Shown: positions 10,436 through 46,581 of the stretch, piece after piece | Layout: every line of letters starts with the position of its first letter | Numbering within the stretch: the first letter of the stretch is position 1 | NCBI GenBank assembly: GCA_944362965.1 | Contig: CALVTR010000001.1 | Location: 90,529 to 154,528 of the forward strand | DNA length: 64,000 bases | Reading direction: 5' to 3' | DNA from: an uncultured Clostridia bacterium | GTDB taxonomy: Bacteria > Bacillota > Clostridia > Christensenellales > UBA1242 | The notes under the pieces: generated by a model | The model's database searches: none | What the model was told of the DNA's origin: nothing | What the model saw: only the letters and a program-made list of their open reading frames with translations | Program-made: the position numbers and the translations under genes

Positions 10436-10539
10436 GAGAAGGCATAAAGGCTGATAAGCCTTTCAGAAGGCAAAAGCTTTTGCCTTGTTGTGCATTTTGG
10501 AAAAATGCACGTGCCTTCTCACACTCGCGGCGAAGCCGC
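10436..10539 (-). promoter_or_regulatory. structured 5' leader of locus 1 (four-way junction plus GC hairpin)
   Basis: Outer stem GAGAAGGCA/TGCCTTCTC (10436-10444 / 10512-10520) encloses three hairpins at 10446-10463, 10467-10486 and 10490-10510. A GCGGC-GAA-GCCGC hairpin follows at 10527-10539. Confidence 0.55.
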
Positions 10540-10581: not shown

Positions 10582-10609
10582 AGTATACCCCCCCCGCAAC
10601 CCACGTCAA
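10582..10609 (-). promoter_or_regulatory. promoter P1 with a G8 tract in the spacer
   Basis: Minus strand reads TTGACG (10604-10609), TGGGTTGC, G8 (10588-10595), then TATACT (10582-10587), giving a 16-nt spacer. An A/T-rich UP-like region lies upstream. Confidence 0.65.
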
Positions 10610-10707
10610 GCAAATTTAACAAATTTTTTAAATTTTTTTGAAAAATTTTGTGCCTTAGGCACTTTTTATCGTGTGACTTGTCTATAATGCCGAGTTTATC
10701 TGTTCCA

Positions 10708-10826
10708 AGAGAGCGGTGATAAAGTTTATTTTTGAAACAACCTAATCTGACAATCGTCAAACATTTGGTTTGCGGACAGTGATGCAAACTAAGTTTGCCG
10801 GATAGTCGTCGAACATTTGGTTCGGT
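10708..10826 (-). repeat. copy of the hairpin-repeat family, inverted relative to the 21.4-21.8 kb array
   Basis: 10774-10821 matches the reverse complement of 21494-21541 at about 45/48 nt. Contains two AAAC/GAAC-CAAAT-GTTT/GTTC-GACG hairpin units. Confidence 0.7.
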
Positions 10827-10874
10827 GGCTTAGCCACTTTTTATCGACAAGTGTATCTATAACAAAGCATTTTT

Positions 10875-19979: not shown

Positions 19980-21196
19980 TTATTCAACAATAGCCCGCCA
20001 ATATCTATTGTAATAAGTATCTGTTAAATAAGTCAATGCATTTGTTTGAACTTCTGAAGCCGTTGACGTTGCTATAATTGATGAATCTGAGAAAGAACTG
20101 CTACTTGCTATTTCCCAGTTATATGGCGTATTGAATGTTATTGCTGTGAGTCTACCGCAACCATAGAAAGCTTCCCTACCTATACTTGTCACACTGTCTG
20201 GGATTGTTATACTTGTTAAACTACTGCAACCTCGGAAAGCACCTTCAAGTATACTTGTCACTCCTTCTGGGATTGTTATACTTGTTAAACTAGAGCAATT
20301 TTGGAAAGTAAAACTACCTATACTTGTCACTCCTTCTGGAATTACTATACTTGTTAAACTAGAGCAATTTTGGAAAGTAAAACTACCTATACTTGTCACT
20401 CCTTCTGGAATTACTATACTTGTTAAACTATCGCAACCAGAGAAAGCACGATCACACTAAATTCGTAAGGTGAACGAGAAGTTCTATATATTGTTGACGG
20501 GGTTACTAATTCTCCTGTTGCACTTGTATTACAATCTGATACTCTTGCTGTGCCTGGTGAAGTTGTATAACTATATTTTAAATTACTATTTGCTGTTTCA
20601 AATATTGCATAATAGGTTGTTGGTGAATTCTCTGTGAAGGTGAAATTATAGTCTGTAAGAGTTGATACAAGCTCTAGTATAGGAGATCGTGCTTTCTCTG
20701 GTTGCGATAGTTTAACAAGTATAGTAATTCCAGAAGGAGTGACAAGTATAGGGTCAAATTCTTTAAAGCCGTCTTCATCTGCGTCGGTTAGGTCATTCAC
20801 GCCAATTATCCCGCCATGTCTTTCTGACACACCATCATTTGCAAGAGCTCCTAAATCTACACTTTCTATTGACCACAGAATATCCGTTGCATTGATTATA
20901 TCAAAATACAAGATAAAAGAACCGTGACCATTCTCTTCTGTCTCTAAAGACGTTAAGTCCATATTAAAGTTTCCATTTATGTAACCCGGTGTGAAGCTAT
21001 CAACAACAATCTCTTCACCACCCGCTTCTTGATACCTGACTTCTTTAACAAACAAGCTTCTATCAGGCACGACAAAGCTTAAATTGCCTTGTATGCTTAT
21101 ATGCTGTTGCGTCGCTGCATATACCCCAAGTATCAACGCCCCTAGCATAAGCATAAATAATGAAATTGTGGATATCAATTTTACTTTTAATGACAT
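19980..21196 (-). pseudogene. rearranged BspA-type LRR surface protein paralog (locus 2)
   Basis: The N-terminal 150 aa are near-identical to locus 1. After KEFDP, about 85 codons are replaced by an antisense LRR unit. A 13-nt deletion at the FSV/DRAFSG junction causes a frameshift and stop at 20423. The LRR C-terminus continues in ORF 19980-20399. Confidence 0.8.
20386..20752. repeat. perfect 68-bp inverted repeat flanking a 231-bp segment
   Basis: 20386-20453 is the exact reverse complement of 20685-20752, checked base by base. Both arms encode one LRR unit (DRAFSGCDSLTSIVIPEGVTSIG). Confidence 0.9.
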
Positions 21197-21354
21197 AAAT
21201 CTCTCCTTAACGCAAAAATTTTATTTTTATTTTGTTTAATCACTGCTGTTTTTATGCAAATTTCGACCTTACTTGCATATCTTAGCCACATTTTAGCATT
21301 TTTGCAATCCCTTTGTCTCAAGGGTGACGGCACGATGCCGTCAAATCACGACCC

Positions 21355-21780
21355 GAATTTTCGAACCATATGTTCGACGATTGTTCGATTAAGAGTGTCT
21401 AAGTTTTAAACTACATCTCCGCTCTCTAAGCCTAACGCTTGGCGGTTATACGGCAGAGTGAGAATAAGAGATAAGCTATGTCTCCGCTCTTAAGCCAAAT
21501 GTTTGACGGCTGTCCGGCAAACTTAGTTTGCATCACTGTCCGATAAAGTGAATATAAGAAACAAACTTTATCTCCGCTCTCTAAGCCTAACGCTTGGCGA
21601 CTATCCGGCAGAGTAAGTTGAAAAAATAAACTTTGTCGCCGCTCTCAAACCTTACGTTTGACGATCGTCCGCGAGCCAGATGCTCGGCGTTTGTCCGGCA
21701 GAGTGACATAAAAGAATAGTCTTTATTCCCGCTCTCTTTAACCATATGTTCGACGGCTGTCTATGTGAGCGAGCTTTGTC
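21355..21780 (+). repeat. tandem array with alternating 65/90-bp units
   Basis: Unit heads T(C/T)(T/G/C)CCGCTCT at 21416, 21481, 21571, 21636 and 21726, giving spacings of 65, 90, 65 and 90. Each unit carries a 4-5 bp hairpin with a 5-nt loop followed by G(G/A)CG. Confidence 0.8.
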
Positions 21781-21788
21781 GCAGATAT

Positions 21789-21874
21789 GAGAAGGCATAA
21801 AGGCTGACAAGCCTTTTGGAAGGCAAAAAGTTTTTGCCTTCTTGTGCATTTTGAAAAAATGCACATGCCTTCTC
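21789..21874 (-). promoter_or_regulatory. locus 2 copy of the four-way-junction leader
   Basis: About 90% identical to 10436-10520, with the same outer stem GAGAAGGCA/TGCCTTCTC and three hairpins. Here about 590 bp of repeats separate it from the gene. Confidence 0.55.
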
Positions 21875-21928
21875 ACACTCGCGGCGAAGCCGCTCGCGAT
21901 GGACATAGTATGTCCATCTTTTGCTATT

Positions 21929-22112: not shown

Positions 22113-22230
22113 TTTCTCCGCCGCAGGCAAGCGAATGAGGGATTTTTATTAAAAAATCACAATAGGCAAAATATGTTTTGCCTATAAAAACTCTAGTGAG
22201 TTTTTCATTCGCTTGCCTGCGGCGGAGAAA
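22113..22230. other. nested palindrome D: 26-bp outer stem plus three hairpins
   Basis: TTTCTCCGCCGCAGGCAAGCGAATGA (22113-22138) pairs perfectly with 22205-22230. Inner hairpins lie at 22141-22158, 22162-22185 and 22187-22204. Confidence 0.7.
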
Positions 22231-22451: not shown

Positions 22452-23618
22452 TTAATTTTGCTTTGATTTTGAGAATTTCAGCTTTTTAAATTTTATCACT
22501 TTCACATCTCCGCCCTTTGACTGACGCAAGACGTTAAGACAAATTCCAATGCCTGCCATAAACACCATAACAGACGTCCCACCACTTGAAATAAACGGAA
22601 GTGGCAAGCCTGTTGGCGGGATTGAGCCTGTGACTACCGCAATATTAAGCAGTGTTTGAACGGCGATTATAAATGCAACACCGCTGACCAGCATTGAGCC
22701 AAACCTATCTTTTGCGTTTAGTGCAATTTTGATAAGCCTGTAGACAAGCACAAAGAACACAATCATCAAAATTGTCACACCAACAAAACCAATCTCTTCG
22801 CCGATGATTGACAAAATAAAGTCTGATTCAGCAAAAGGAAGAAAAAGGTATTTTTGACGAGAGTTGAAAAGTCCAACACCAAACCACCCGCCGTCACCAA
22901 GCGAATAGAGCGACTGAATAAGCTGAAAGCCTTCTCCTTGCGGTGACGCCCATGGGTCTATGAAGGCAAGCAGTCTTCTTAGGCGGTATGGCTCAAGCAC
23001 CACAAGCAGCGGAACGCAAGCAGCGGCAGGAATTGAGAACATAAGGGTGTGTTTTTTGCTCATTCCACCGATAATCAGCATAAAAAGAGTTACAAACGCG
23101 ATACACATAGTCACGCTCATTGACGGCTCTAGCATGATAAGCACGCACATCAGCCCGCCAACTATCAAAACAGACAGAAGCCCTTTAAAGGTTTTGACCT
23201 TGTCATGATTGTCGGACATATAGGCGGCAGTGAAAATCACTAGTGCAAACTTTGCTATCTCTGATGGCTGAATTGAAAACCCAAGTATTGACACCCAGCG
23301 TTTTGCACCATAACTTTCCATTCCAAGTCCAGGCACAAAGACAAGCACTAAAAGCACAAAAGTTCCGCCAACAATCCACCATTTATATTTTTTTAGCAGA
23401 TGATAGTCAAAAAAGGTGAAAAATATCATTGCGATAACGCCAAGCACCACACCAAAAATTTGTTTTATAAGAAAGAAATATTTGTTGCCATAGTGATAAT
23501 TTGCACTATAATATGACGCGCTATAAACCATTAAGCACCCAAAAATCACAAGTGCCATAACAAGTAGCGCAATTACTATAATATCAGTTCTGCATTTCGA
23601 TTTTTTCAAAGTTATCAA
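22452..23618 (-). CDS. ftsW: SEDS-family peptidoglycan polymerase FtsW/SpoVE
   Basis: Polytopic protein with LPFISSGGTS and ESDFI motifs. The start is uncertain: I favour the TTG at 23618, 7 nt after AAGGAG; the ORF extends to 23681, overlapping murD. Confidence 0.85.
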   Translation of the reverse strand: MITLKKSKCRTDIIVIALLVMALVIFGCLMVYSASYYSANYHYGNKYFFLIKQIFGVVLGVIAMIFFTFFDYHLLKKYKWWIVGGTFVLLVLVFVPGLGMESYGAKRWVSILGFSIQPSEIAKFALVIFTAAYMSDNHDKVKTFKGLLSVLIVGGLMCVLIMLEPSMSVTMCIAFVTLFMLIIGGMSKKHTLMFSIPAAACVPLLVVLEPYRLRRLLAFIDPWASPQGEGFQLIQSLYSLGDGGWFGVGLFNSRQKYLFLPFAESDFILSIIGEEIGFVGVTILMIVFFVLVYRLIKIALNAKDRFGSMLVSGVAFIIAVQTLLNIAVVTGSIPPTGLPLPFISSGGTSVMVFMAGIGICLNVLRQSKGGDVKVIKFKKLKFSKSKQN

Positions 23619-24897
23619 ACATAATCTCCTTAAAGATTTCACCGCGAACAGCATAGGATGAAAATTCATCAAAACTTGCACACGCAGGGGCTAGCAGTAT
23701 CTTCTGCCCAGGCTGTGCATTCGCCTTTGCATAAAAGGCAGCTTCTTTCATGCTTGCAAAAAGCAAGGGCTGATAGCCGTAACCTACTGCACAATCAAAA
23801 ATCTCCTGTCCCGCCTGACCAAAGCAGAGAACCTGCTCAAAGTTATAATTTTTATTGAAAATTTCATCAAACTTGAATCCCTTATTTTGTCCGCCAAGCA
23901 AAAGCACAAGCCCATTTTCTCCAAGTGAGCTGATTGAAGCAAGAGCGGCAGAGATATTGGTTGCCTTAGAATCGTCAAAGACGTCAGCCCCACCGACCTG
24001 TCCAAGATATTCAAGGCGGTGCGGCGGAGCTTTAAAACTGACAATAGCCGCCTTAATAACTGCTGGCTTTACTTTCATTTTTACCGCAATAGACACCGCA
24101 GCCAAAACGTTTTCAAGATTTTTTTCACCAAAAAGCGGCAAGTCATTTAGTGAAATAATTTTTGTTTTATTATGAAAAATTGCATTATTTTTCACAAAAA
24201 CACCTTTATTCAGCATTTTTTTTGAAAAAAACAGCACTTTTTTATCAATTAACAATTTATTTGTGTTTTCATCATCATAGTTTAGCACCACCTTTTGTCT
24301 GTGTTTGCCTGTCAAAATTTTCTTCTTGACGCGCAGATATTCTTCAAAACTGCCATGCCTGTCTATATGGTCAGGTGCAAGATTTAAAATGCAGGCAACA
24401 TCTGCCGCAAAATAGCTTGAAAGTTCAAGCTGAAAGTTGCTAACTTCACACACTATAACTGAATTTTTGTCAGTTTTTAGTGCTATATTTGATATTGGCT
24501 GTCCGATATTTCCACAGACAAAGGTTTGCTTGTTCGACTTTTTCATGATGTCACCAACAAGAGAAGTTGTTGTTGTCTTGCCGTTAGTGCCTGTTATGCC
24601 AATAATCTTGCCCTTTGAAAAAAGATAGCCGAGGTCAAGTTCACTTATAACCGGTGTATTATTCATAAAAAAATGCGATATAAGCCCGTTGCCAATAACC
24701 TTTATGCCAGGACTGACAACAACAAAATCATATTTCTTTTGAAGTGGCTCCTTTTCATAGTTAAAAATATTTGAAAACCTGTTCTCATCGTCATAGATGC
24801 TAACGCACGCACCCTTCTCATGAAGCAGTTTGCAAGCAGCTTGCCCACTTATACCCATGCCATACACAAGCACATTTTTACCTTTTAATTTTATCAT
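23584..24897 (-). CDS. murD: UDP-N-acetylmuramoylalanine--D-glutamate ligase MurD
   Basis: VLVYGMGISGQA, GITGTNGKTTTT and the Mur ligase domains. The start is taken at MIKLKGKN, overlapping the mraY stop by 4 nt. Confidence 0.92.
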   Translation of the reverse strand: MIKLKGKNVLVYGMGISGQAACKLLHEKGACVSIYDDENRFSNIFNYEKEPLQKKYDFVVVSPGIKVIGNGLISHFFMNNTPVISELDLGYLFSKGKIIGITGTNGKTTTTSLVGDIMKKSNKQTFVCGNIGQPISNIALKTDKNSVIVCEVSNFQLELSSYFAADVACILNLAPDHIDRHGSFEEYLRVKKKILTGKHRQKVVLNYDDENTNKLLIDKKVLFFSKKMLNKGVFVKNNAIFHNKTKIISLNDLPLFGEKNLENVLAAVSIAVKMKVKPAVIKAAIVSFKAPPHRLEYLGQVGGADVFDDSKATNISAALASISSLGENGLVLLLGGQNKGFKFDEIFNKNYNFEQVLCFGQAGQEIFDCAVGYGYQPLLFASMKEAAFYAKANAQPGQKILLAPACASFDEFSSYAVRGEIFKEIMFDNFEKIEMQN

Positions 24898-25856
24898 AAC
24901 ACCCCTGTGACAAATAGATAGCCGATAAGCGTGCCTAGTCCGCACACCATCGTTATTACTATATATACTGCCACAATGCGATTTTCATGCACACCGCTTT
25001 TCTCAAAATGATGATGAAGCGGCGCCATTTTGAATACCCTTTTATGTGTCTTTTTATAGTAGCCCACTTGAATAATATCTGAAAGCGCCGTAAGCACATA
25101 CAAAATGCCGATTATTGGAAGGATAAGCTCAAGCTTTGTGAATACCGCGAGCGACGCAATCGCACCGCCGAGTGCAAGCGAGCCTGTATCTCCCATAAAT
25201 ATCTTTGCGGGAAAGCAGTTGAAAAGAAAAAAGCCTACAAGAGCCCCTAAGAGTGCAAAAGCAATTATTGAATAGTTATAACCGCCTGCAAGTAATGCTG
25301 TGATTATGCCAAAGAATAACAGATAGGTTCCGCTCACCCCTGTGGCGAGTCCATCAAGTCCGTCAGTCAAATTGACTGCATTTGTGACCGCAACATAAAA
25401 AATTATAATAAATGGTATGATAAAAAGCCCTAAATCTAGCTGTAACCCGAAGAAATTCAGGTCGCTTCCAACCTTAAAATAAGCAAAAATTGCAATTATT
25501 GTTGCAATAGATACTTGTCCAATAATCTTCTGATAAGGCTTTAACCCTTCATTTTTATGATATTTTATCTTGATAAAGTCGTCCATAAAGCCAAGAAGCC
25601 CATAGCCAAGCATAGTTAAAAGCACAAGCACCGGCATATAAACTTCGCCACGTAGAAATATTCCGCAAGCAAAAAGCGTGGCTAGAATAAAAATCCACCC
25701 GCCCATAGTTGGCGTTCCGCTTTTCCCTGCATGCTTGTCCACATAATGCAAAATAGTCTGCGAAAGGTGAAATTTCTTGCATAATTTAAGTATTGGCACA
25801 CCTAAAATAAGTGCCAGACTCAACCCCACTAAAAATACTAAAAAAAATTCAAGCAT
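24894..25856 (-). CDS. mraY: phospho-N-acetylmuramoyl-pentapeptide transferase MraY
   Basis: Ten-TM protein with NAVNLTDGLDGLA, MGDTGSLALGG and APLHHHFE motifs. Confidence 0.96.
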   Translation of the reverse strand: MLEFFLVFLVGLSLALILGVPILKLCKKFHLSQTILHYVDKHAGKSGTPTMGGWIFILATLFACGIFLRGEVYMPVLVLLTMLGYGLLGFMDDFIKIKYHKNEGLKPYQKIIGQVSIATIIAIFAYFKVGSDLNFFGLQLDLGLFIIPFIIIFYVAVTNAVNLTDGLDGLATGVSGTYLLFFGIITALLAGGYNYSIIAFALLGALVGFFLFNCFPAKIFMGDTGSLALGGAIASLAVFTKLELILPIIGILYVLTALSDIIQVGYYKKTHKRVFKMAPLHHHFEKSGVHENRIVAVYIVITMVCGLGTLIGYLFVTGVL

Positions 25857-26000
25857 ATGTCGCTCCTAAATATATTTATTATTTAGTTTACGCAAGTATG
25901 CCTGAATTATAAGAAAAAATAGAATAAAGAGAATTTATAAATATAGATTTTTTAAATTTACAAAATAAGATTAAATAAATATTGTATAGCTTTTGTATAT

Positions 26001-26119
26001 GGGCGGCGACAAAATTTTAAAACAAAAGTTTTAAAATTTAAAAAGAGAAACTTTTTATCGCTCCGAGATAAAAAGTTTCTCTTTTTTGCTCGCTTTTTCA
26101 AAGCGAGCGGTCGCCGCCC
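26001..26119. other. nested palindrome A: 10-bp GC outer stem plus three perfect hairpins
   Basis: GGGCGGCGAC (26001-26010) pairs with GTCGCCGCCC (26110-26119). Inner stems of 12, 16 and 9 bp lie at 26012-26039, 26044-26082 and 26088-26108. Confidence 0.7.
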
Positions 26120-26145
26120 TGCTTATAAGCTAAACATACACACAT

Positions 26146-26176
26146 AAAAAAACAAGAAACAAAAATGTTTCTTGTT
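26146..26176 (-). terminator. terminator of the 26305-27444 gene
   Basis: AACAAGAAAC/GTTTCTTGTT 10-bp stem with a T-run on the minus strand. Confidence 0.7.
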
Positions 26177-26304
26177 TTAACTAAAAGTTTTTAAGTTATT
26201 ATTTTTTCTTAATTTTATTGATTTTTTACTTATTTTTATGTAATTTTTGTGTTTTTAAGATAAATTTTATAATATTTTATTAAACTTCATCTTATAAGCA
26301 ATGA

Positions 26305-27444
26305 CTACACGCTCTCCGGATCGCCGCCAACTACTTCATCACCAATATAGGCATAGAGCTTATTTATAAGAGACTTTCTCTTTATTCTTGGCTCAAGAAT
26401 AGTAAGTAATTTTACAATTTTATCACCGTTTGCTATAACATCTTCTGTCCTTGCATATTCTAAAATGCCTTCAAGAAGCTCATCAATACTGATATTTCTT
26501 ACATATAAATTCTTTTCTTTATCGCCACGCGTTAAAATCTCAAGCACATTGCAGATATATTCAACATCCCCGCTCTCAGCAAGCTTGCTTGTGGCTTCCA
26601 CTCTACAATATCCAGTTGAGAGAGCAAATTGCATGCAGGCTCTTGGATTCTTGCATTTTTGCATAAATTTTTCAGCAATAACCTGTGAATACACCGGAGT
26701 ATAAGCATTTGCATACCTAATAACCTTATAAGGCTCCATTTCACTTACAATTTCTGCAATGGCGTTGATAAGAAATTTGCGACTTGCTCCCTTGATAGCA
26801 GGTCCATTATTTCCTATATAATCACAAAGTTTATGCAGGTATTCAACATTTCCTATCTCAACAAGCGCATCAATAATCCTATCTAATTTTGTTCTTCCAA
26901 GTCTTGCAAGGTGGTATATTGCTCGCGGGTTTTTGCTTTTAAGTATTGCACTTTCAAGTTTTATAAAATCATCACCATCTACTTGAGAAGCAACTTCAAG
27001 CATAAGCATTGGGTCATTTTTTTGAATAACCGAATCTATATATAAATCTTTGCTTATATTCTTTATATTTGCGGTAAAGCGTGCAAGTGCATTTGTATCG
27101 TTTGATTTTAGCACAATTTGTCCAATAATTTCTTTTTCTTCTTCAAAAAGACACTCTTGATTTTTTTCGGTATACTCAACTATACTATTTGGAGAATAAA
27201 CATAACTTAATAGACTAACAGGTATATGAAGATTATAAAACTTAACGCTTGGCAAATTTGCAAAAGCTTTAGCGTTAGATTGGCGAGCCACCTTTTGAAC
27301 TATTCCATCAGTCTCTTGTGGGCGAATATAAGCTTCAATATCTTTAAGCACATAAGTTATCTCGGCATCATTCCATGCGCGCGTTATAATCCCCACTCTA
27401 TTTACTCTGTCTGTCAATTTGCTTAATAATTCTTTAAATTCCAT
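26305..27444 (-). CDS. hypothetical alpha-helical repeat protein
   Basis: The start is taken at MEFKELL; the ORF extends to 27507. Internal repeats KNPRA...(A/L) and G(N/D)VEY(L/I). No catalytic motif recognised. Confidence 0.55.
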   Translation of the reverse strand: MEFKELLSKLTDRVNRVGIITRAWNDAEITYVLKDIEAYIRPQETDGIVQKVARQSNAKAFANLPSVKFYNLHIPVSLLSYVYSPNSIVEYTEKNQECLFEEEKEIIGQIVLKSNDTNALARFTANIKNISKDLYIDSVIQKNDPMLMLEVASQVDGDDFIKLESAILKSKNPRAIYHLARLGRTKLDRIIDALVEIGNVEYLHKLCDYIGNNGPAIKGASRKFLINAIAEIVSEMEPYKVIRYANAYTPVYSQVIAEKFMQKCKNPRACMQFALSTGYCRVEATSKLAESGDVEYICNVLEILTRGDKEKNLYVRNISIDELLEGILEYARTEDVIANGDKIVKLLTILEPRIKRKSLINKLYAYIGDEVVGGDPESV

Positions 27445-27570
27445 ATTTTTTTCTCCCTTTGTAATATTTCTATAAGTATATTTTACTACAATATTAAAAA
27501 TAGTCAATACTAAAATTGTAATTTTTTATCATTGACATGACCGGCTTTTTATGTTATAACAAACTGGTAG

Positions 27571-28269
27571 GTGAAAATCATGGAAGAAGCTTTTTTAAAA
27601 CTTAAAAAAATTGATGAATTTATTGAGAAAAAATATAGAATTTCAGATAGCCGCGACTTTAAAATTATCAAACTTTATGCGGACGCTGTCTATGATTTTT
27701 TAGTCCACTATTGCACCTATGATAGTAGTTCTGCTAGCATTGTTAAAGCAAACAACAACGACACCGAAATATATAATAGACTTTTAAACTTAAAAAACTG
27801 CGTCTTGACAGGCAAAGGAGTGTGTGGACAGTTTGCTCAATTTTTTACCACTCTTGTGGCAAATAGAATTTATAAGGTATGTGGAAAAGCAAGATGCGGC
27901 ATTCTTAACGCAAAGATATACTTTACAGACAAAAATGGAAATAACAAAATAGACCCGCATAGCTTAAACTTTCTTTCCTTTGACGGCAGGCTTTATCTAT
28001 ATGACATTTCAATGGGCTTAAAACAAGCTGTAAAAGCACAAGAGCCTAACGCTTTCTGCGGAATTGACAGTGAGCTCTATCAAACTCGCCTTGCAAAGTT
28101 TGACAATAATTCCACTATAGAGTCAACAAATATGCTATATATTGAGCCTAAGCCAATGAAAGCAGTGTTTGAACTTTTCTATCCACATAAAAGTTTTTAT
28201 ATCAAAAAGACGGAAGATTATGAAGGCGTTAAAGCCCCAGATATCTTCACATCTCCAGAAAATTATTAA
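27571..28269 (+). CDS. transglutaminase-like cysteine peptidase-fold protein
   Basis: GKGVCGQFAQFF (the G-x-C-x-x-FA core), then DPHS and LYDIS about 16 aa apart, fit a Cys-His-Asp triad. The ATG at 27580 is a likelier start than the GTG at 27571. Confidence 0.55.
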   Translation: MKIMEEAFLKLKKIDEFIEKKYRISDSRDFKIIKLYADAVYDFLVHYCTYDSSSASIVKANNNDTEIYNRLLNLKNCVLTGKGVCGQFAQFFTTLVANRIYKVCGKARCGILNAKIYFTDKNGNNKIDPHSLNFLSFDGRLYLYDISMGLKQAVKAQEPNAFCGIDSELYQTRLAKFDNNSTIESTNMLYIEPKPMKAVFELFYPHKSFYIKKTEDYEGVKAPDIFTSPENY

Positions 28270-28386: not shown

Positions 28387-29886
28387 TTAATTATTTCCAT
28401 GATTTTCAATATTTTCGTCATCTTCTGGAGACTCATTATTAATAACACACGAAAGTTGCTTTCTAAAATAATCATACACCACATCAAAGTCATTATATGG
28501 GTATTTTTTGCCTTTTATCTCTTGATACTTTTCAGCACCTTTTCCAGCTATAACTATTGTCTGCCCGTCAGTATATTTTTTGAGAGCATACTCTATCGCA
28601 CGCTTTCTATTCTCTATAATATCACAATGCTTGTTCACCCCTTGTAAAATCTCCCCTATAATCACATAAGGGTCTTCAAAACGCGGATTGTCACTAGTTA
28701 AAATAACGTCGTCAGCGAGCCTACTTGCAATTTCCCCCATTATAGGACGTTTTTGCCTGTCTCTATTTCCACCGCATCCAAATATAGTAACAAGCGGTTT
28801 GTCTGAAAGCTCTCTTGCCGTTTTTAAAATCTTTTCAAGCCCGTCTGGAGTGTGAGCATAGTCTATCACAACATTGCTGCGACCTGTTTTTATTATATTG
28901 AATCTGCCTTCAACTGGGTTTATGCAGCTTAGTCCTAGACGCACAAGCTCTTTAGGCACGCCAAGACTTCGACATATAGCAATAGAGGCAAGTGCGTTTT
29001 GAACGTTATAATCTCCCACCAAATTTGTTTTAATATCTATTTTCTCGCCCATGTAGTCACATTGAAATTTTGAGCCATCAAAAGATTTCTTTATATTCTC
29101 GGCCTTCACATCGCAAAAATGTTCTTCACCATAAGAGATGCATGGCACATGCGGATGAATTAAAAACTCTCGGCAACGCTCGTCATCGCCACAAATTATG
29201 CCAAGTTTAACCTTGCCATACTCAAAAAGTTTAAATTTTGCCTTTGCGTAGCTATCCATGTCCCTAAAAAAGTCAAGGTGGTCTTCTGTGATATTTGTTA
29301 GCACGCCTATTTCAAATTTAATTCCGTCAAGCTTGTTTAGTGCAAGCGCATGGGCGGAGGCTTCCATAACAACATACTCGCACCCCTTTTCTTCCATCTC
29401 CTTAAAAAGTTTGTGGAGCATATATGGGTCTGGCGTAGTGAGACCTGTGTCCACAATTTCGTCATCAATCTTTGCTCCAAGCGTGCCAATCGTTCCAACC
29501 TTGCCGCTCGCATACCTTAAAATATCAGTCGTGATATTTGCTATTGTAGTCTTCCCATTTGTGCCAGTGACGGCAATTATTTTAAGTTTATCGCAAGCCC
29601 TATCAAAAAAGTTTTTAGAGATTAGTGCATAGGCAGACCTTGCATCTTCAACTTGCACCACTCTTGCGTCTGGGAATTTTTCTTCACTTAAAACCGCAGC
29701 CGCCCCACGCGACAGGGCATTTTGAATAAAATCATTTCCGTTGAATTTGCTGCCTTTAAGTGCAATATAAATATCGCCTTCTTCAACATCTTTGTCTGAA
29801 ATCTTAATGTCCTTAATATGCGTTTGATAAAGGTTGCTATTAATATTTTTAATTCTAACATCTTTTAAAAGGTCATCTAAAAGCAT
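28387..29886 (-). CDS. murE: UDP-MurNAc-L-Ala-D-Glu--2,6-diaminopimelate ligase MurE
   Basis: VTGTNGKTT and the DNPR motif (LTSDNPRFEDP) typical of meso-DAP-adding MurE. Acidic C-terminal tail. Confidence 0.93.
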   Translation of the reverse strand: MLLDDLLKDVRIKNINSNLYQTHIKDIKISDKDVEEGDIYIALKGSKFNGNDFIQNALSRGAAAVLSEEKFPDARVVQVEDARSAYALISKNFFDRACDKLKIIAVTGTNGKTTIANITTDILRYASGKVGTIGTLGAKIDDEIVDTGLTTPDPYMLHKLFKEMEEKGCEYVVMEASAHALALNKLDGIKFEIGVLTNITEDHLDFFRDMDSYAKAKFKLFEYGKVKLGIICGDDERCREFLIHPHVPCISYGEEHFCDVKAENIKKSFDGSKFQCDYMGEKIDIKTNLVGDYNVQNALASIAICRSLGVPKELVRLGLSCINPVEGRFNIIKTGRSNVVIDYAHTPDGLEKILKTARELSDKPLVTIFGCGGNRDRQKRPIMGEIASRLADDVILTSDNPRFEDPYVIIGEILQGVNKHCDIIENRKRAIEYALKKYTDGQTIVIAGKGAEKYQEIKGKKYPYNDFDVVYDYFRKQLSCVINNESPEDDENIENHGNN

Positions 29887-37645: not shown

Positions 37646-37787
37646 CCGCACCTTAGCGGAAGCTGTTTGACAAATTCTTGTCAAACCTTGCTTTTAAATA
37701 GCTCCCTAGAAAATCTAGGGGGCTATCTAAAAACAATAAAGCTTAAACGCTATTTGCGTTTAAGCTTTGCTTCCGCTAAGGTGCAGG
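37646..37787. other. nested palindrome B: 16-18 bp outer stem plus three hairpins
   Basis: 37648-37663 pairs with 37769-37784, plus 2 further bp beyond a bulge. Inner hairpins at 37665-37686 (9 bp), 37698-37726 (12 bp with one T-G) and 37738-37768 (13 bp). Confidence 0.7.
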
Positions 37788-39880: not shown

Positions 39881-40861
39881 CTAAGCCACTTCACCTATAT
39901 CTATAGTGACATTTTTTGTTATTTTACAAGTCAATATACTTTCATCGTCTGCTGTCGATGTTTCTATCTCATCATTTTCAACAGCGTGAGCAGTGATGTC
40001 GTAATCTACTTCGTCTGATGGCGTGACAATAGCCGTTGCATTTGTTGATGAAGCCGTGCTTGGGGATGAAGAAGCTTGCACATATGAAAGATATCCAATA
40101 ATCGCAGTGCCATTTGCATAAACAGTATATGAGTGAACATATCTACGTGGCTCTACGGAACTAGAATTTTCTTCCTGAGTTGAAACTTCATCTTGGAAAG
40201 GATTAGAAGCAAGTGTGAGATATAAATTAGAGCTTACATAAACTTCTGCACTGCCTTTTTCTTCAATAGTATAATACATTGAACTTCCTAAATCAGTTTT
40301 GAAACAAATCTCAATATCGCTCCTATAATTATTTATAGTAACCTTATACATAGTCGTTTCTGACAATTCTATGAAAATATTATTTAAGCTTATTGTTGTT
40401 GAGCTTGTTGCTTGAATATTAATATATATTGTGCCAGAAACCCCATCATATGTTGCTACTTCAGAAATTGGAACACCATCACCAGCTATTGTTCCGCTGA
40501 CGGTTAATGTTGCATTTGATATGTTAGATTGACTGCTTGCACTGTATGCTGTTGTGGTTGTATTGACAACATCTATTGCAACAGTTACTTTCCCACTATC
40601 TGTTAAAACTGTGCCGATATCAAGATCAAAGCTGTCTTGAACAAAGCCTGGAAAGAAATTTCCCATAGTCTGACCATCTGTCATGTCGGTGGATATCCTT
40701 ATGTCTTTTACATACAACGTTGAACCTTCTATATTAAATTGCACATTTCCTTTTAAATTTATGGTTATGTTACCAGTTACAGCCAAAACTCCCACCAAAA
40801 GCATACTAAATACTAACACAAAAGCTGAAATCATAGATACTAATTTTACTTTTAAACTCAT
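39881..40861 (-). CDS. secreted surface protein paralog without LRRs (locus 3)
   Basis: The N-terminal MSLKVKLVSMISAFVLVFSMLLVGVLAVTG and the following beta-rich domain (LYVKDIRIS...FFPGFV) are homologous to loci 1 and 2. The C-terminal part is Ser/Thr-rich. Confidence 0.8.
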   Translation of the reverse strand: MSLKVKLVSMISAFVLVFSMLLVGVLAVTGNITINLKGNVQFNIEGSTLYVKDIRISTDMTDGQTMGNFFPGFVQDSFDLDIGTVLTDSGKVTVAIDVVNTTTTAYSASSQSNISNATLTVSGTIAGDGVPISEVATYDGVSGTIYINIQATSSTTISLNNIFIELSETTMYKVTINNYRSDIEICFKTDLGSSMYYTIEEKGSAEVYVSSNLYLTLASNPFQDEVSTQEENSSSVEPRRYVHSYTVYANGTAIIGYLSYVQASSSPSTASSTNATAIVTPSDEVDYDITAHAVENDEIETSTADDESILTCKITKNVTIDIGEVA

Positions 40862-40926: not shown

Positions 40927-41032
40927 GTGCCTTAAGAAAACGTGCGAATTTTTAATTCGCACAGGCTGCAAATATTTGCAGCCTAAGAAACTCATTCGAG
41001 TTTCTGTTTTCTTAAGGCGCGGCCAAAGCCGC
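40927..41032 (-). promoter_or_regulatory. structured 5' leader of locus 3 (four-way junction plus GC hairpin)
   Basis: A 15-bp outer stem (40927-40941 / 41006-41020, one T-G pair) encloses hairpins at 40942-40962, 40963-40984 and 40986-41005, with 0-1 nt linkers. A GCGGC-CAAA-GCCGC hairpin lies at 41019-41032. Confidence 0.6.
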
Positions 41033-41076
41033 AGCCTATCCATTAAGAATAGAATATTATATCTTAATTCTCTTCT

Positions 41077-41103
41077 ATTATACCCCCCCGCAACCCACGT
41101 CAA
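41077..41103 (-). promoter_or_regulatory. promoter P3 with a G7 tract in the spacer
   Basis: Minus strand reads TTGACG (41098-41103), TGGGTTGC, G7 (41083-41089), then TATAAT (41077-41082), giving a 15-nt spacer. The upstream ~35 nt are identical to P1. Confidence 0.65.
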
Positions 41104-41378: not shown

Positions 41379-43388
41379 TTAATTATCATTAAGAACAATG
41401 GCATTTCTTCTATCAATGTCGTAGAAGATTTTATCAACCTCAAGTTTTTTAGAAATTCCCATAGGTTCAGGAGCTGATGACTTAACCATACATTTAGTTG
41501 CATAGAACGGTGTCATGGTGTCCATCATGATTTCCTTTCTGAATATCTTTGCAACAACCGTCCATTGTTTAAGCTGTCTTAATTGTTGTTTATCAAGCAG
41601 CGGTCTGCGTGTTCGCTGAACAGAAGTCGAGATATTTTCTCCAGAATCTGATTCTTTTGTATTACGCGACCTATTCTCTTCTTCGTGGAATACCGTTGTT
41701 TCACCGCAGGCTTCTGAGAAGGCTTGAATAGTTGACGGGTCTTCTGAGCCTAAGAACACTTCCATCTGGAAGTTACCACGAATGTTTTGAGCTTCATCAG
41801 CACCATACTTAATATCAAGTTGTTTATATGATTGAAGAACTATTTCAAAGAACACGTTTCTTGAACGAGCAACTGTAACCATAGTTCCAAACTTAGGAAC
41901 AGGTGGCATATTACCAAACTCATCAAGAATGAAATATACAGGACGTTTAAGTTTTCCTGTCTTGCCATTCTTAGGATTTACTGTTCTGTTTGCGACATCG
42001 ACAAGCACCTTATAGAGCTGACTTATACAAAGCACGCCTAGTGGGTGACGTTCAGTTTTGTGGTCTGGAATACGAATGAAGAATGCTGTTGGACGTTCTG
42101 GGATATCTTCAAAATCAATATCCGTTCCGCTTGTCATATAGAAGATACCTTCGTCGCCGAGCATATTACCAATAGAAGAGCCAAGTGTTGAAATAAATGA
42201 CCTTTGTGTAACAGGGCTGGCAAGACAAACTGTTGACATAAGGTCATGCACGGTGCTAAGTCTTGGGTCTCTGCCTTCGCTATATTTTGTCAAAGTTTTA
42301 AGAGCATTTTCTCTATCACCCGCAGGATCACGGCGCATACAAATCTTATATAGATTATAGAAATTAAATTTGTCAAGAGTCATGCCCAGTCTCGGGTCGC
42401 GGCTATCTTCAAGCATACCTTCCATAATACCAAGAATAAAGTCACGACAACCATCAGGCCACATCTTATCTTTGGCATTAGGATCATCTGGAATAAGAGA
42501 AAGCGAAATGTTTTTTAAGTTAGATTTTGCTTCATCTTCAAGTTGAACACGTCTTGCTTCAAGTTCCTGTTGAAGGATGTCGTTATTTGGGAAAGCTTTT
42601 CCTTCAAAACCAAACCAAGTGTCGCCATAGGTTGCTCCACCAATTTGATCTGGCGAAAATCTTTTATAGCCCATCTCTTCAGGGGTTGCATTGCTTATCT
42701 TCTTTACTTCTTTTGCAAGATTTCCTGCTCTTTCATAAGTTTTATAAGCAATTTCCATAGGATTCCAACGTGATGACGCATAAGGATTTTCAAGGTTTAG
42801 AACGATAATATTATAGCCTTCTTCTCTTAAAGCGTTTGCATTATCGGCGTAAAGTTCGCCCTTAGGGTCAGTCATAACAAGGCTAGGCTTTTGCCCAGTG
42901 TGAGCAAGTATTCTAATTGTTGGATTTGCGAAAATCTGTGTCTTACCAGTACCAGTAGTACCTAAAACCAATGCGTGAGTTTCAGGTTTCATATTGACTT
43001 CATAATGCCCGCCAACTTCCTTATTTCTAAAAACAAAGCCTGTTTTCTTAAGCGATGGAAGATTGTTCCATGTTGAAAAGATAAGGTCTGGGTCAGTGCG
43101 TAATCTTTCAGTTGTGATAAATTTAGAGTCAAAGTTGATATCAGTCTTTTCGCCTTCAGCCGTAGTTCCAACATTAGAGCCCATACCTTTTTTCTCTTTT
43201 GATAAGAGCGCTGTGCATAGTCCTGCAATAACGCCTATCGCAAGCATAGCAAGTGATATAACATTGACAAGTGCATCCGTTATCTCTCTTGTGCCTTCTT
43301 GGGTAAAATAAGAAATTGCAACACCAATTCCATAACCAAGAATGCCAAATACCAACATTAAAATGACACTAAGCTTGAATTTCTTCAT
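41379..43388 (-). CDS. VirD4/TraG-type type IV coupling protein (membrane-anchored P-loop ATPase)
   Basis: Two N-terminal TM helices, Walker A LGTTGTGKTQ, the DPKGEL motif and Walker B YFILDEFGNM. Confidence 0.85.
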   Translation of the reverse strand: MKKFKLSVILMLVFGILGYGIGVAISYFTQEGTREITDALVNVISLAMLAIGVIAGLCTALLSKEKKGMGSNVGTTAEGEKTDINFDSKFITTERLRTDPDLIFSTWNNLPSLKKTGFVFRNKEVGGHYEVNMKPETHALVLGTTGTGKTQIFANPTIRILAHTGQKPSLVMTDPKGELYADNANALREEGYNIIVLNLENPYASSRWNPMEIAYKTYERAGNLAKEVKKISNATPEEMGYKRFSPDQIGGATYGDTWFGFEGKAFPNNDILQQELEARRVQLEDEAKSNLKNISLSLIPDDPNAKDKMWPDGCRDFILGIMEGMLEDSRDPRLGMTLDKFNFYNLYKICMRRDPAGDRENALKTLTKYSEGRDPRLSTVHDLMSTVCLASPVTQRSFISTLGSSIGNMLGDEGIFYMTSGTDIDFEDIPERPTAFFIRIPDHKTERHPLGVLCISQLYKVLVDVANRTVNPKNGKTGKLKRPVYFILDEFGNMPPVPKFGTMVTVARSRNVFFEIVLQSYKQLDIKYGADEAQNIRGNFQMEVFLGSEDPSTIQAFSEACGETTVFHEEENRSRNTKESDSGENISTSVQRTRRPLLDKQQLRQLKQWTVVAKIFRKEIMMDTMTPFYATKCMVKSSAPEPMGISKKLEVDKIFYDIDRRNAIVLNDN

Positions 43389-46505: not shown

Positions 46506-46581
46506 GGAAGTTTAGCTCAGCTGGGAGAGCATCTGCCTTACAAGCAGAGGGTCATAGGTTCGAGCCCTATAACTTCCACCA
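46506..46581 (+). tRNA. tRNA-Val (anticodon UAC) with encoded CCA
   Basis: Acceptor stem GGAAGTT/AACTTCC, D-loop AGCTCAGCTGGGAGAGC, anticodon loop CTTACAA, T-arm GGTTCGAGCCC and a 3' ACCA. Confidence 0.95.

Follow-up and report, generated by a model that had tools for sequence, protein, structure and literature searches.

Upstream of mraY in an uncultured gut Clostridia species, known from metagenomes only, lies a nested palindrome (hereafter element A). It raises the question of what kind of element it is and whether, as a sequence-only reading had proposed, it is specifically linked to mraY. We addressed this question in a 64-kb stretch of DNA from that species, called the window throughout, and in contigs of conspecific strains and related species.

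Structure and setting of element A

Element A spans positions 26001-26119. An inverted-repeat search and folding agreed that these 119 bases form a nested palindrome with four perfect stems, as the sequence-only reading had described, in which an outer stem encloses three hairpins (Table 1). Two of the hairpin stem lengths given in that reading (12 and 9 bp) were correct, but the middle stem measures 20 bp and not 16 bp. The 10 bp of the outer stem are made of G and C only, plus one A-T pair. Linkers between the parts are 0-1 nt long, 17 of the 119 bases are unpaired, and both strands are predicted to fold as a four-way junction. RNA folding gave -67.2 kcal/mol for the - strand and -68.2 kcal/mol for the + strand, compared to an average of about -26 kcal/mol for shuffles (z = -12.7 and -11.9, respectively), and none of 200 shuffles folded as well; with DNA parameters the energy was -49.5 kcal/mol (z = -11.5). 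Since these folding energies lie far beyond those of shuffles, element A is real and not a chance outcome of A+T-rich DNA. The nested palindrome is thus a confirmed and statistically solid observation.

Table 1. Coordinates of element A, its surroundings and the other cloverleaves of the window
Feature	Position	Strand	Description
Element A, outer stem, arm 1	26001-26010		GGGCGGCGAC; G+C clamp of the four-way junction; pairs with 26110-26119 (10 nt, 100% complementary)
Element A, outer stem, arm 2	26110-26119		GTCGCCGCCC; partner of 26001-26010
Element A, inner hairpin, 12-bp perfect stem	26012-26023/26028-26039		Loop of 4 nt; arms AAATTTTAAAAC/GTTTTAAAATTT
Element A, inner hairpin, 20-bp perfect stem	26040-26059/26067-26086		Loop of 7 nt; 100% complementary
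Element A, inner hairpin, 9-bp perfect stem	26088-26096/26100-26108		Loop of 3 nt; arms GCTCGCTTT/AAAGCGAGC
murE	28387-29886	-	Pfam and gene order
ORFan gene between murE and mraY	27571-28269	+	No family match
ORFan gene between murE and mraY	26305-27507	-	No family match
Intrinsic terminator of the upstream ORFan gene	26178-26149	-	13-bp stem, loop of 4, TTTTTTT tail
mraY promoter-proximal leader and ribosome-binding site	25857-25915	-	TATAAT ... TTCAGGCATACTTGCGTAAACTAAATAATAAATATATTTAGGAG
mraY	24894-25856	-	Pfam and gene order
ftsW	22452-23681	-	Pfam and gene order
Cloverleaf after ftsW	22113-22230		25-bp outer stem, three hairpins; behind canonical ftsW terminator 22365-22344
Cloverleaf between SipL-like gene and spoIIR	37648-37784		16-bp outer stem, three hairpins
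Cloverleaf in 5' leader of BspA-type LRR surface-protein gene	10436-10520		Downstream of G8-tract promoter
Cloverleaf in 5' leader	21788-21875		Downstream of promoter 21956-21929; close paralogue of 10436-10520
Cloverleaf in 5' leader of gene 39881-40861	40929-41018		13-bp outer stem, three hairpins

The outer-stem motif of element A was over-represented in the window (3 matches, 0.36 expected), and as a pair it was not found elsewhere in the 64 kb. The 11-mer ACTTTTTATCG, which had been noted as common to the middle hairpin and two bracket repeats at 10.66 and 10.84 kb, is indeed shared (3 occurrences, 0.12 expected). However, two of the three are the two copies of one direct repeat, and with only two independent occurrences this sharing is weak evidence and unconvincing as a sign of kinship. 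Scanning JGI metagenomes with both outer arms returned 120 loci, all of them chance pairs in G+C-rich contigs (inner G+C of at least 53%) and none A-like, a result that is uninformative on further copies of element A.

Pfam matches and synteny place element A in a cell-division and cell-wall cluster on the - strand, in the order murE, mraY, murD, ftsW, murA, ftsQ-like, ftsA and ftsZ. Two ORFan genes are inserted between murE and mraY, and element A adjoins the mraY-proximal edge of this insertion. The pair had no homologue between murE and mraY in about 80 relatives and no match in Pfam, NCBIfam or PADLOC; in the protein database, homologues of the 379-aa product of the larger gene, which is split in strain L003, were confined to its own 90% cluster.

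Along the direction of transcription, the ORFan gene is followed by its terminator, a 30-nt spacer, element A, an A+T-rich spacer of about 105 nt and then the TATAAT, leader and ribosome-binding site of mraY. Element A is therefore additional to a normal terminator of the upstream gene, a 13-bp stem with a T7 tail, as had been proposed. The cloverleaf after ftsW is placed in the same way, each of the two lying behind a canonical terminator and ahead of the next promoter. Its position in the gap between the ORFan terminator and the mraY promoter argues against element A being a dedicated mraY riboregulator. Nor did the proposed link to mraY find support in the spacer itself, where all columns that are invariant among relatives fall within ~60 nt upstream of the mraY ATG, downstream of element A. 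Directly before the mraY start (25857-25905, - strand), the leader motif TTCAGGCATACTTGCGTAAACTAAATAATAAATATATTTAGGAG is conserved at 77-93% MraY identity and contains a small GCA-TACT-TGC hairpin.

Cloverleaves elsewhere in the window and in relatives

A strict search (perfect outer stem of at least 8 bp, with at least two perfect hairpins inside covering at least 60% of the interior) identified nested palindromes at 7 loci in the 64 kb. No such palindromes occurred in 20 composition-preserving block shuffles or in 756 kb of unrelated metagenome contigs. Folding confirmed six robust cloverleaves in the window, each with exactly three inner hairpins within an outer stem, and so bore out the claim that this architecture is common to other window elements and to the leaders of surface-protein genes. 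The six are unrelated in sequence, except for the two paralogous leaders. Their pairs are Watson-Crick in 266 of 268 cases, with 2 G.U, and their folding energies are equal on both strands. The one between the SipL-like gene and spoIIR hardly varies across six other contigs. Surface-protein genes have three of the six cloverleaves in their 5' leaders, about 55-60 nt past strong promoters. Another nested palindrome, weaker and made of A+T only, lies between convergent genes at 1399-1551 (12-bp outer stem, hairpins of 12, 8 and 14 bp, one of them a good bidirectional terminator); it may be a degenerate member of the family or a chance match in A+T-rich DNA.

The leaders have further features of their own. 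Two of the promoters before surface-protein genes (10586-10599 and 21956-21929, both - strand) are near-consensus, TTGACA-N16-TATACT with 11/12 matches, and carry a run of 8 G in the spacer. A 6-G version precedes gene 39881-40861 (about 41075-41100, - strand), and a 9-G version occurs in a sister species (L091:13799-13828). The G-run promoters look like slipped-strand phase variation of promoter spacing. The leader of about 720 nt after promoter 21956 contains degenerate repeats of ~70 nt (21210-21760, - strand) with cores AGAGAGCGGnGAyAAAG and CCGGAyAGyCGyCAA. The ~70-nt motif also occurs in the opposite orientation at 10690-10830 (+ strand), bracketed by direct repeats that contain ACTTTTTATCG; these repeats had no Rfam match and were not called by Tandem Repeats Finder. 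Directly upstream of the promoter and cloverleaf leader at 40929-41018, a gene for a TraG/VirD4-like type IV secretion coupling protein (41379-43388, - strand) stands alone in a core chromosomal context, with no other conjugation genes recognised near it.

To place the family among relatives, we folded the spacers that precede mraY and follow ftsW in 69 species-level relatives (MraY identity of 55-86%) and counted the cloverleaves. Only one of them, the sister species L021 (86% MraY identity), carried a cloverleaf at either position; the homologous positions in the other 68 carried none. Absence in close relatives is the first half of what the sequence-only reading had named as evidence against its own proposal, and it is what we found. 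In the sister species, a cloverleaf with outer stem CGAGGCTTG and a first hairpin beginning AAAGAGACCGAAA follows ftsW in all sampled contigs. L021 has a second copy of the CGAGGCTTG cloverleaf before mraY, 3.7 kb away, at the position homologous to element A, and the two copies can be aligned from outer stem to outer stem only. The sister-species and window-species cloverleaves occupy the same two positions with unalignable sequences.

The sister-species copy before mraY is absent in at least seven contigs, all encoding the same MraY protein (P0007); what these contigs retain of it is limited to six bases at the start of the left arm. In L101, the left third of the unit is still present and extends to the second-hairpin loop, after which comes an unrelated insert. 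Because the copy is missing from the P0007 contigs and truncated in L101, the unit can be regarded as dispensable for mraY, which again speaks against a specific link to this gene; as far as these contigs tell, it is a discrete unit that can be copied and lost. The insert itself (L101:9520-9950, also in L102 and L103) is about 430 nt long, G+C-rich and highly structured, starts exactly in the second-hairpin loop and had no Rfam match. At the SipL-spoIIR spacer, the site of a cloverleaf in the window, the sister species has 4-5 tandem 59-nt units followed by a terminator (L091:671-933, L101:480-745, L092:1-170). The unit has the core GGAACAGATAAACT, found also in the window at 10693-10707 (- strand), and small GCATAATGC hairpins.

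Comparison with known elements

Searches for known families gave no assignment. At the gathering threshold, the sole Rfam match in the window was the tRNA at 46506; at a permissive threshold, the best matches of element A were generic hairpin models at 36 bits, against a threshold of 50, or worse. The after-ftsW element and two sister-species loci had no Rfam match. ARAGORN found no tRNA-like gene in 25800-26400, and such a gene was rejected for element A on its dimensions also (arms of 10, 9, 20 and 12 bp, with variable loops of 3-7 nt). Comparison by blastn of element A, the after-ftsW element and the sister cloverleaf with plasmids and phages gave no match, and scans of viral contigs with the 20-bp hairpin of element A and the left end of the sister-species unit gave 0 matches. 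Membership in the 'cuckoo RNA' family, whose neighbouring hairpins carry a conserved motif in the loop, was rejected since the cloverleaf loops do not contain CCUCCUCCC, and a retron or similar ncRNA associated with a reverse transcriptase or nuclease was rejected since the neighbours are mraY and an ORFan gene without a Pfam, NCBIfam or PADLOC match.

A REP family is defined by its sequence: its hundreds of near-identical copies share a conserved 5' tetranucleotide, fold as single hairpins that are imperfect, and come with a cognate RAYT transposase. Nearly every cloverleaf, by contrast, has its own sequence, with perfect stems and a four-way-junction fold. The six cloverleaves of the window differ in sequence where REP/BIME (REPIN) members would be near-identical, and no RAYT (IS200-like Y1 transposase) was found among roughly 45 window ORFs scanned against Pfam. 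REP/BIME elements (REPINs, in Proteobacteria) nevertheless resemble the cloverleaves in being interspersed extragenic palindromes in spacers after genes, DNA-level repeats and not classical RNA genes, and in forming recombination-prone mosaic clusters that are thought to affect mRNA ends (in part after PMC3333891).

Membership in a MITE family found no support in the flanks of element A (...TAAGCA / ATATAC...), the after-ftsW element and the cloverleaf at 37648-37784, which have no target-site duplication. Outer stems could in principle act as MITE terminal repeats. Dispersed copies bounded by terminal repeats were seen in one case, the two loci 3.7 kb apart in the sister species, and neither a conserved flanking motif nor a transposase was found with the cloverleaves. 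Modular, non-coding repeats also occur in the spacers of Streptococcus pneumoniae (BOX elements) and Neisseria (Correia or NEMIS elements). They measure about 100-150 bp, have very stable folds and can alter the expression or stability of neighbouring transcripts. The BOX modules (A, B and C) and the Correia inverted repeats are sequence-conserved, and Correia elements have TA target duplications. The cloverleaves differ from both in having no target duplication, no conserved module sequence (in the window species) and three inner hairpins within a clamp.

Three further classes did not match. An integron attC site was discounted since the ends GGGCGGCGAC/GTCGCCGCCC do not contain the RYYYAAC/GTTRRRY core sites and the stems are perfect, with no extrahelical bases. 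A Rho-independent terminator was discounted since the terminator scan called 26178-26149 alone and none within element A, the outer stem being followed by ATATACAAAA and not by a T-run. For an invertible promoter switch, one orientation was seen in the 9 contigs with element A and in 12 sister copies, although consensus assemblies could miss a minor orientation. Element A is claimed by no known family among those checked.

DNA-level and RNA-level readings

Variation among strains bears on whether the stems are kept by selection on RNA or arise at the level of DNA. Element A is present in all nine independent contigs that cover the site, which form a small sample of five haplotypes. The loop of the 12-bp hairpin varies between TTTT and TTGCG on the gene-sense strand, and that of the 20-bp hairpin between TCGGAGC and TCGAAT. 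Both stems are invariant. The loop of the 9-bp hairpin has lost 1 nt in one strain, and one extra T occurs at a hairpin junction. The sole stem change in the nine contigs is a C to T in the outer arm 26110-26119 in L006-L008, which gives a G.U pair on the gene-sense strand and A.C on the other. Events therefore number 4 in 17 unpaired and 1 in 102 paired positions (Fisher p = 0.0014). Over 3.8 kb, strain L003 differs from L002 in just two patches, the first in the ORFan gene and the second running from the loops of element A through the 80 nt just downstream. This downstream flank has 24 differences in 80 nt and the stems have 0/102; had the stems drifted like the flank, such a pattern would have a probability of about 1e-16 (4e-9 if the 3' half is taken by itself). 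Unchanged stems beside a 30%-divergent flank suggest that the stems are either constrained or very recently shared. Loop inversion, which some template-switch events are expected to produce, was not seen among the variants.

In the sister species, a consensus was built from six distinct copies with 51 pairs. Both sides had changed with pairing kept in 11 of the 51, and a one-sided wobble change was seen a single time. Whole hairpin tips differ between sister strains whose flanks are about 97% identical, and each version is a near-perfect palindrome. Where homology between these strains is interrupted, the breaks lie within the cloverleaf, in hairpin loops or at junctions. Folding is more stable by 2-9 kcal/mol for the antisense than for the sense strand, and thus there is no sign of selection on a sense RNA.

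We favour, with a probability of roughly 0.45, the reading that element A is one copy of a lineage-restricted cloverleaf family of DNA repeats, REP/BIME-, BOX- or Correia-like in the broad sense, and not a dedicated mraY control element. The family would consist of spacer modules of 85-140 bp, with an outer inverted repeat around exactly three hairpins, defined by architecture and not by sequence. Element A can best be classed with the interspersed palindromic repeats of other bacteria, as a variant defined by structure. The few wobbles, the strand symmetry, the two-sided multi-base changes, the breakpoints in loops, the narrow lineage, the copy at 3.7 kb and the presence/absence polymorphism all argue for an origin at the DNA level.

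In the mechanism that we propose, the unit would be copied to a nearby second locus and could be lost again, and its arms would stay complementary because one arm is re-copied from the other, most likely by template switching during replication. Template switching is favoured because it fits these DNA-level features as well as the clustered changes beside element A. One such event can yield perfect stems together with compensatory changes of several bases (PMC8794818), and hairpins formed in this way (quasipalindrome correction) share with the cloverleaves perfect Watson-Crick stems, multi-base changes in both arms, a lack of wobble intermediates and clustered adjacent changes (PMC8794818). 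A read-through RNA or an unwound DNA strand would then snap into a very stable four-way junction (about -66 kcal/mol), which would block exonucleases and separate the inserted genes from mraY as a passive effect. Element A may in this manner insulate neighbouring transcription units, and the palindrome appears to make the site prone to rearrangement.

Several observations fit the DNA-level reading poorly. Template switching is a mutational process and not an element family; on its own it accounts neither for copies at two loci nor for the constant number of three inner hairpins. The stems of element A, with 0/102 changes beside the divergent L003 flank, look like stems under selection, and transcription must run through the three family members located in 5' leaders. 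Mobility, moreover, is deduced from a single two-locus case with no target-site duplication, flanking motif or transposase.

The main rival, kept alive by the constant three hairpins, the conserved stems and the transcribed leaders that a DNA-level origin does not explain, is a selected cis-acting RNA, and we regard it as possible, if rather less probable. Such an RNA would be a processing signal or an exonuclease-proof cap that stabilises or insulates flanking mRNA segments; in the case of element A, its target would be the mraY-murD-ftsW message or the 3' end of the upstream transcript. This explanation accounts well for family members placed about 55-60 nt past strong promoters, for invariant stems next to loops and an adjacent spacer that vary, for a sole stem change that preserves pairing as G.U on the gene-sense strand, and for the occupation of the same two positions in two species by unalignable sequences. 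There is also a precedent in Clostridium, where intergenic stem-loops of the cip-cel operon, with G+C-rich stems like those of element A, are cleavage signals and protect and stabilise both ends of the processed mRNAs (PMC10311766). A cloverleaf would provide the same kind of end protection if transcribed. The cip-cel structures are, however, single stem-loops whose action within one operon has been shown experimentally, whereas element A lies behind a terminator and is strand-symmetric. Selection on RNA is also hard to reconcile with only 2 wobble pairs in 268, with equal folding on both strands, with the better-folding antisense strand of the sister family and with a sister-species copy before mraY that is dispensable. 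Furthermore, element A and the after-ftsW element, each behind a terminator and ahead of a promoter, may be transcribed weakly. The DNA-level and RNA readings are not exclusive, as a DNA repeat could have been co-opted in the leaders.

A bolder version of the DNA-level reading, which we consider unlikely as a whole, is that the cloverleaves are a new, structure-defined class of DNA element. Each would be a four-way-junction module able to perfect itself, to spread copies to nearby spacers and to renew a hairpin tip as a whole palindrome, and such modules would seed hotspots of strain-variable DNA (ORFan genes and phase-variable surface-protein cassettes). Recognition would fall to a lineage-specific enzyme with specificity for junctions or hairpins, and co-option would have turned some copies into 5' leaders. 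If the DNA-level reading is right, an uncultured gut Clostridia lineage would keep the three-hairpin shape while the sequence turns over almost completely, and would offer a natural case for telling RNA-level selection from template switching that mimics it. This is relevant to every covariation-based RNA gene finder: the two-sided signal is strong here (11/51 pairs), and yet the elements are symmetric between strands and nearly free of wobble pairs, which speaks against an RNA origin despite this covariation. The cloverleaves coincide with breakpoints of strain-variable DNA in an otherwise conserved cell-division cluster, and may mark or cause local genome plasticity beside essential genes.

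Such breakpoints could also point to a recombination or integration site at a gene-cassette boundary, attC-like or otherwise structure-specific, through which the ORFan pair or the surface-protein cassettes enter. Element A abuts the two-ORFan insertion in the murE-mraY junction, the after-ftsW element precedes a strain-variable LRR cassette, and sister-strain homology breaks inside the cloverleaf at loops and junctions. Like element A, attC is a structured palindromic site at the edge of an inserted cassette and folds as single-stranded DNA. But attC sites are single imperfect hairpins with conserved R and L boxes and extrahelical bases that require an integrase and attI, and element A, with its perfect stems, has neither core sites nor extrahelical bases. 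Roughly 45 of the 64 window ORFs (of at least 120 aa) were scanned against Pfam without revealing an integrase or recombinase, and in the window species the variable LRR region begins about 700 nt beyond the after-ftsW element. We therefore hold a cassette-boundary site to be improbable.

A cluster of back-up intrinsic terminators, or a small RNA gene, in which the nesting would be incidental, seems more doubtful still. Some inner hairpins of other family members score as terminator-like, the 20-bp hairpin of element A lies between an A-run and a T-run, and hairpin clusters have been proposed as terminators (PMC8355165). However, none of the hairpins of element A was called by the terminator scan, the outer stem has no T-run behind it, and constitutive termination is out of the question for the family members in 5' leaders; nor would a terminator cluster be expected to have a G+C clamp and always three hairpins. 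For a small RNA gene, the promoter scan found no credible promoter directly upstream of element A.

Finally, an invertible DNA switch, in which the outer arms act as inverted repeats for site-specific flipping of a 99-bp core with its promoter-like site (26042-26014, directed toward mraY), is very improbable: an outer inverted repeat around a short core does resemble known invertible switches, and the same genome has a 68-bp perfect inverted repeat in surface-protein genes, but the hairpin order is the same in 9/9 element A contigs and 12/12 sister-species copies, flipping a core that is itself palindromic would alter almost nothing, and promoter-like matches are no commoner than in shuffles.

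The 68-bp repeat is an observation in its own right. Its two arms (20386-20453/20685-20752) flank 231 bp across the junction of the LRR surface-protein ORFs 19980-20399 and 20423-21196 and adjoin 69-bp LRR tandem repeats, where strain L001 has a single LRR gene of 616 aa. The segment between the arms is a candidate invertible coding segment.
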